Part shown: positions 55,828-56,529 of the stretch, piece by piece
Layout of the letters: the number at the start of each line of letters is the position of its first letter
Position numbering within the stretch: the stretch's first letter is position 1
The notes under the pieces: model-generated
The model's input: only the letters and a program-made list of their open reading frames with translations
What the model was told of the DNA's origin: nothing
The model's database searches: none
Made by a program: the position numbers and the translations under genes
Origin: Escherichia coli
Lineage (GTDB): Bacteria; Pseudomonadota; Gammaproteobacteria; Enterobacterales; Enterobacteriaceae
Assembly: GCF_024700885.2 (NCBI RefSeq)
Contig: NZ_CP117016.1
Reading direction: 5' to 3' (one strand)
DNA: 64,000 bases

Positions 55828-56046
55828 GTCAGTAAGGGCATTCTGATGAGCAGAATTATCACCACCACCGTGTATACACTGCATGAGCTATCCTCCACCG
55901 CACAGGAAAAAGCCCGCGACTGGTACCGTCAGCATCATGCTGACAGCAACTGGTATGAAAACGTGTATGAGGACTTCAGGGAGGTCTGAGGCATTTTCGG
56001 AATTGACCTCCGCCAGCGCGTTTTCCGGCTCAGCAACGGCAGGTTT

Positions 56047-56529
56047 ATGGAAGAGCCGTGCATCTGGTTCAGCGGATTCTGCAGCCAGGGGGACGGAGCC
56101 TGTTTTGAAGGGCGCTGGCACTGGCAGCCAGCGACACCCCGGAAAATCAGGGAATATGCCCCTCAGGACCGTGAGCTTCATCGTATCGCGGATACCCTGC
56201 AGGCGGTGCAGAAACGTAACTTCTGGCAGCTTCAGGCTGAAATCAGTCACCGGGGACGTTACTGCCATCCGTACAGCATGGATATCACCGTCACCCGGAA
56301 CAGTCCGACTGGTCAGGCAATGACAACCGATGCGGAAGCCGCTGTCAGCGAAGCCCTGCGCGACCAGGCCTTCTGGCTGTACCGCCAGCTGGAAAACAAG
56401 TACGACTGGCTGACCTCAGACACCGCTGTGGATGAGGCCCTTCTCATCAACGAATATACCTTCACCGAAGCCGGTCTGCGCGCCGGCTGCCCCGTCATCG
56501 TTAAACTATCATTCACCGATTTTCTGTGA
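56047..56529 (+). CDS. hypothetical prophage protein (160 aa); possibly the C-terminal part of a gene whose 5' part (55846-55989) is in another frame
   Basis: Short ORF MSRIITTTVYTLHELSSTAQEKARDWYRQHHADSNWYENVYEDFREV ends 58 bp upstream with good SD context. Confidence 0.4.
   Translation: MEEPCIWFSGFCSQGDGACFEGRWHWQPATPRKIREYAPQDRELHRIADTLQAVQKRNFWQLQAEISHRGRYCHPYSMDITVTRNSPTGQAMTTDAEAAVSEALRDQAFWLYRQLENKYDWLTSDTAVDEALLINEYTFTEAGLRAGCPVIVKLSFTDFL

Follow-up and report, generated by a model that had tools for sequence, protein, structure and literature searches.

Positions 55846–56529 of the window, the 64,000-nucleotide stretch of Escherichia coli DNA analysed here (contig NZ_CP117016.1), carry two neighboring open reading frames (ORFs) of 47 and 160 codons. 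Together they make up one mobile-element gene of 214 codons, which belongs to the family DUF8835/phrog_5162 and has been split in two. We are confident that this single gene was broken by a point nonsense substitution and lengthened by loss of its native stop: a T>A change converted TGT (Cys48) to TGA at 55987–55989, translation would end after 47 residues, and the 160-codon ORF is what remains of that frame from its first internal ATG (Met68) onwards. An earlier reading, made from the sequence alone, had suggested that the pair could be one prophage protein of ~220 residues disrupted by an indel. Its central claim of one disrupted gene holds, with a length of ~214 codons and homologues that span both parts; the useful outcome of the present analysis is a correction, from a frameshift to a point nonsense mutation.

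One reading frame and one substitution

The first ORF occupies 55846–55989 (ORF list and direct reading) and has the good start context attributed to it. The second (56047–56529; ORF list) begins after an interval of 57 nt (55990–56046), close to the 58 bp given by the sequence-only reading, and lies, as that reading said, upstream of the antitoxin gene cbeA, which starts at 56541. It had also been placed in another frame; however, the distance from one start to the other is 201 nt (56047 − 55846 = 3 × 67, or 67 codons), and the ORFs therefore share a single frame. Translation of 55846–56529 in this frame yields 227 residues with one stop only (...EDFREV*GIFGIDLRQRVFRLSNGRFMEEPC...), and the remaining two frames are full of stops. 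The parts of the gene are as follows.

55834–55838, + strand: Shine–Dalgarno-like AAGGG, 7 nt before the ATG at 55846, kept in most intact alleles
55846–55986, + strand: codons 1–47 of the DUF8835/phrog_5162 gene (the 47-codon ORF), with near-invariant E14, L15, A19 and A23
55987–55989, + strand: premature in-frame stop TGA, TGT (Cys48) in intact alleles; T>A at 55989
55990–56046, + strand: in-frame remnant, residues 49–67 (GIFGIDLRQRVFRLSNGRF), outside both listed ORFs and holding the family-invariant Gly52
56047–56487, + strand: codons 68–214, the bulk of the 160-codon ORF, from internal Met68, with the motif SGFxSQGDGAxFEG
56365–56367, + strand: codon 174, CAG (Gln), CTG (Leu) in all five compared alleles, within the family-conserved LRDLAxW segment
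56488–56490, + strand: native stop lost, codon 215 TGA>TGC, by alignment to other alleles
56491–56529, + strand: read-on tail, residues 216–227 and then TGA at 56527–56529, in former intergenic sequence

The lesion was characterized in a six-way DNA alignment of the window copy, a second TGA allele from YDC107, and four intact alleles. In the four strains concerned, the intact allele is a single 645-nt coding sequence for 214 residues at the same location as the window copy, between the DUF987 gene and cbeA; these alleles (e.g., WP_000086757.1 of strain 118UI) are named 'hypothetical protein' or 'DUF8835 domain-containing protein', with 91–99% DNA identity among the four aligned. The alignment is ungapped across the whole gene. 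Codon 48 is TGA in the window and in YDC107 but TGT (Cys) in every intact allele aligned. Two further differences are confined to the window copy: codon 174 is CAG rather than CTG (changed base 56366, L174Q), and codon 215 is TGC where the other sequences have the native TGA stop, so that loss of this stop extends the ORF by 13 codons to 56529. The premature stop aside, the window frame and an intact allele share 98–99% protein identity. The common frame and the ungapped alignment identify the lesion as a nonsense substitution, a single T>A, rather than an indel.

The same comparison deals with the proposal of a frameshift caused by an indel between the two ORFs. We give this next to no chance: the starts are separated by exactly 67 codons, one frame reads through both ORFs, no gap is needed anywhere in the gene, and the existing annotation agrees. 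Of the 5426 complete E. coli genomes searched with megablast, 3246 contain the segment and one, strain MLI114 (NZ_CP117013.1), matches it at 100%; this genome and the window are identical over 8760 nt or more (window 51801–60560). Positions 837976–838659 of that genome, equivalent to window 55846–56529, are classed by the Prokaryotic Genome Annotation Pipeline (PGAP) as a pseudogene, and the accompanying note reads 'internal stop', not 'frameshifted'; the start, internal stop and extended end coincide with those of the window copy, without any difference. The YDC107 copy bears the same pseudogene annotation. The feature is thus already known, the identical locus being marked as a pseudogene in RefSeq.

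Allele frequencies were obtained from the same genomes with 55-nt megablast queries centered on the variant base, such that every 28-nt seed must contain the variant. The TGA allele of codon 48 was found in 41/5426 genomes (47 places, with up to 3 in a single genome, that of strain FCI5), among them an O25b:H4 strain, and the TGT allele in 1573/5426 (2228 places). A single-base difference could in principle arise from a sequencing or assembly error, but an identical TGA in 41 independently assembled complete genomes makes this explanation negligible in probability; the TGA allele is a minority allele, not a sequencing error. The stop-loss TGC allele of codon 215 is carried by 355/5426 genomes, and most copies are annotated as an intact protein of 227 residues; a cluster of 501 such 227-residue proteins carries the identical CPVIVKLSFTDFL tail. 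Intact copies therefore seem to tolerate the C-terminal extension, whose frequency among them means that the stop loss does not qualify as decay subsequent to inactivation.

Family, fold and alternatives to a broken gene

Searches with the intact protein support the assignment of both halves to one gene. The phrog_5162 profile (PHROGs v4, function unknown) matches residues 2–210 with E=2.9e-36, a full-length match to a family in which proteins of ~200–220 residues are expected. A word-indexed search returned 2493 homologues, mostly of 214 residues, from Escherichia, Salmonella, Klebsiella and Citrobacter, and, at ~60% identity, from Alphaproteobacteria. An exhaustive search of 1.84 billion representatives gave 3400 clusters (50% identity) at E<=0.001, whose representatives are mostly 200–225 residues long and mostly align in one stretch, from about residue 1 to residue 210. 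These matches put the pattern of the two ORFs far beyond chance.

An alignment of 65 diverse members places conserved residues on either side of the stop and in the interval between the ORFs: E14, L15, A19 and A23 in the first ORF; an invariant G52 in the 57-nt 'gap'; and SGFxSQGDGAxFEG, H141, W177, N202 and F206 in the second. Three family motifs, ELS..A.E.A..W near the N-terminus, SGFxSQGDGAxFEG in the center and NEYxF near the C-terminus, are conserved across the 65 members, and the translated window copy has all of them. With Gly52 and other family-conserved residues encoded in it, the interval is disrupted coding sequence and not a spacer. AlphaFold2, run on the 65-member alignment, predicts one compact alpha/beta domain (predicted local distance difference test score, pLDDT, 95.5; predicted template modelling score, pTM, 0.88). 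Homologues that span both halves, conserved residues on both sides of the stop, and a single predicted domain together indicate one gene.

The sequence-only reading had itself named, as the outcome that would overturn it, homologues occurring as two separate conserved genes; what was found instead are single 214-residue genes in the intact E. coli alleles and distant homologues aligned in one stretch. That the window nevertheless holds two genuine, separately conserved small genes, of 47 and 160 residues, is extremely unlikely. Each ORF does have an ATG start, and the first a good Shine–Dalgarno-like motif; however, homologues from E. coli to the Alphaproteobacteria are single proteins of ~214 residues, the supposed spacer encodes conserved positions including the invariant Gly52, the predicted model is one domain, and the split form is the minority state (41 versus 1573 genomes). 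Moreover, the sole Shine–Dalgarno-like element before the ATG at 56047 is an AGG 3 nt away from it.

A different possibility is that the UGA is recoded, by selenocysteine insertion or efficient read-through, and that full-length protein is still made. The position invites the idea, as the UGA stands in place of a Cys codon, the classic site of Cys/Sec exchange. Against it, Rfam searches near the UGA gave no RNA family match even at E<=10, returning chance snoRNA and miRNA noise only, and the 60 nt that follow the UGA form a less stable fold (−12.3 kcal/mol) than shuffled controls do (mean −16.1 kcal/mol; z=+1.5), which argues that no bacterial hairpin resembling a selenocysteine insertion sequence (SECIS) lies directly 3′ of the codon. 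The sequence after codon 48 is, in addition, identical in TGT alleles, and thus no element has co-evolved with the UGA. We regard recoding as exceedingly improbable.

Somewhat less improbable, although still very unlikely, is a functional N-terminally truncated protein, comprising residues 68–214 and the 13-residue tail, produced by re-initiation at the ATG at 56047. Its 160-codon frame is open and retains SGFxSQGDGAxFEG together with most of the near-invariant positions. It would, however, depend on the poor Shine–Dalgarno-like element, would lack helices 17–31 and 38–51 and strands 53–61 of the single compact domain predicted, as well as the conserved E14, L15, A19, A23 and G52, and would carry L174Q in a conserved segment of the window copy.

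Inactivation by the nonsense substitution remains the preferred explanation. A functional DUF8835/phrog_5162 member would have an uninterrupted reading frame, which the TGA at codon 48 denies to the window copy. The 47-residue product would amount to the two N-terminal helices only of the predicted one-domain fold, and a product restarted at Met68 would be deprived of these two helices and of two to three strands; from both, we infer that the window gene is probably non-functional. Several observations weigh against this interpretation. In the 65-member alignment, conservation at Cys48 is not strong. Read-through of the UGA at a low level is possible, as is re-initiation at Met68. The TGA allele is nearly unchanged across the 41 genomes, which suggests that the inactivation is recent, and its neutrality is presumed. 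Finally, L174Q and the stop loss are not simply to be taken for decay after inactivation, the stop-loss allele being common in intact copies of other genomes.

Decay of the surrounding island

The gene resides in a CP4-type integrative island that adjoins the kps capsule locus, in a gene cluster bordered by an IS66 element, an ISEc10 element and several other pseudogenes. The earlier description of a 'prophage protein' is loosely right: the gene is carried by this integrative island, the family is also present in regions resembling integrative and conjugative elements, and its predicted fold resembles structures predicted for uncharacterized phage proteins. The immediate neighbors are as follows.

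55606–55827, + strand: DUF987 (YeeT-like) gene, upstream neighbor, intact (ORF list; PGAP WP_016231182.1 in the 100%-identical record)
56541–56909, + strand: cbeA/YeeU-family antitoxin gene, a pseudogene (TAC>TAA at 56666–56668)
56998–57375, + strand: cbtA-family toxin gene, frame intact, start GTG (ATG in YDC107)

The setting is that of ordinary gene decay in a decaying CP4-type island, and as a routine nonsense pseudogene the finding is of little importance by itself. Other E. coli islands have lost the gene in other ways. In two island variants (L011 and L012), a deletion leaves a 16-codon mini-ORF of head plus tail (L011 2839–2889); many genomes keep only the last 152 nt of the gene (equivalents of window 56378–56529), unannotated, upstream of cbeA; and one or more frameshifted copies have been recorded (P0047). 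In E. coli islands, the gene has undergone two or more independent deletions; it is dispensable and has been lost again and again.

Relative to YDC107, window 51802–58575 shows 41 differences in 6774 nt, and these are clustered (e.g., 53609–53620, 55058–55096 and 56366–56674). Paralogous islands occur in up to 9 copies per genome by megablast, and the clustering suggests short-patch gene conversion among paralogous CP4-type islands; independent mutation may also account for the extra changes. A single recombination donor for the changes at 56366–56674 was sought among the 5426 genomes and none was found: MLI114 alone reaches at least 99% identity over 56340–56700, the variant combination is unique to it, and as no other genome combines the window variants over this interval, a single donor was rejected. 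A promoter and terminator scan of 55400–57100 gave counts at chance level.

The TAA allele of cbeA (55-nt query) was found in 115/5426 E. coli genomes; the two of these that were examined have an island without the DUF8835 gene. The intact cbtA beside the broken cbeA could be accommodated through neutralization in trans by paralogous antitoxins or through silence of the toxin gene, and the weaker GTG start of cbtA could be compensatory or a coincidence. Elsewhere in the window, the DUF4942 gene is interrupted by an ISEc10 element (IS21 family) whose istA is frameshifted (~58576–60700), the DUF905 gene is preceded by an IS66 element (~51800–53300), and the island adjoins the capsule genes kpsF/kpsE at the 3′ end.

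The intact protein and its genomic contexts

Newer RefSeq records name the intact protein 'DUF8835 domain-containing'. It gave no Pfam match at E<=0.01 and no match in NCBIfam or PADLOC, and sequence searches of the PDB (phmmer and profile) returned nothing meaningful. Foldseek likewise found no convincing solved relative in the PDB (best E=0.19, TM 0.22), and in BFVD it found uncharacterized phage proteins only (best E=3.5e-8, TM 0.59). One such structurally similar protein, by comparison of predicted structures, is A0A7H0XE81 of Escherichia phage vb_EcoM_bov22_2; the window copy differs from phrog_5162 and its phage relatives in being truncated. A literature search found no paper that mentions DUF8835 or describes the family.

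A second name attached to the gene lacks support. RelB-type antitoxins are roughly 80 residues long, against 214 for the DUF8835 protein. Neither RelB nor PhD-type antitoxins were matched in searches of Pfam, NCBIfam or PDB sequences, and among the 65 family members there was no Pfam match to RelB/PhD at E<=0.1. With no similarity to either family detected, the RelB-type product name is unsupported; the name alone is common to these type II antitoxins and the window gene, the PGAP product-name phrase being one used for relB (PMC10458947).

Genomic neighborhoods were compared in five sampled contexts. The E. coli order is DUF905, DUF932, anti-restriction, RadC/JAB, DUF987, DUF8835, CbeA, CbtA, DUF5983, DUF957 and DUF4942. 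The DUF8835 gene here directly adjoins CbtA/CbeA (YeeV/YeeU), the type IV toxin–antitoxin module of CP4-type islands. In Klebsiella michiganensis (L016/L017 5610–6996), it lies between CbeA and CbtA. Adjacency to this module is thus found in E. coli and Klebsiella, with different gene orders, and in-frame DUF8835–CbeA fusion proteins of 342–343 residues occur in E. coli (P0002 and P0021). In Pleomorphomonas, the gene lies in a region resembling an integrative and conjugative element (ICE), with ArdC and DUF2958, and in one metagenomic contig it lies in an ICE-like region with ParB and DUF6915; an AAA_34 helicase gene is directly downstream in both. CbtA/CbeA is absent from these two ICE-like contexts, both of alphaproteobacterial type, and from one further context, unannotated, which may be phage- or plasmid-like. 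Many islands have no DUF8835 gene, and the DUF8835 protein is homologous to neither component of the module.

The neighbors alone (anti-restriction, RadC/JAB, DUF932, ArdC and CbeA/CbtA genes) point to a role for the intact protein in the establishment or conflict of mobile elements, and we infer that it may be an accessory protein of such elements, expressed beside anti-restriction and establishment genes and possibly coupled to CbtA/CbeA in enteric bacteria. A paper on polyvalent proteins mentions CbtA/YeeU and RadC (PMC5512222); its passages retrieved with the terms YeeU, RadC and DUF932 make no mention of the DUF8835/phrog_5162 family. As a very large uncharacterized mobile-element family with a confident predicted fold, the one to which the intact gene belongs may deserve attention.

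The shifts in position and the fusions hint at a functional link between DUF8835 and the type IV toxin–antitoxin module. A more specific proposal, which we put forward tentatively and think unlikely to be correct, is that the protein serves as an accessory partner of CbtA/CbeA in enterobacterial islands and, more broadly, as a factor in mobile-element establishment or counter-defence; the CbeA fusions, the Klebsiella gene order with DUF8835 between CbeA and CbtA, and a fold with no convincing solved relative point in this direction. If this were true, the DUF8835 nonsense substitution, the cbeA nonsense substitution and the change of the cbtA start from ATG to GTG would represent a coordinated shutdown of a three-gene module, not independent decay.
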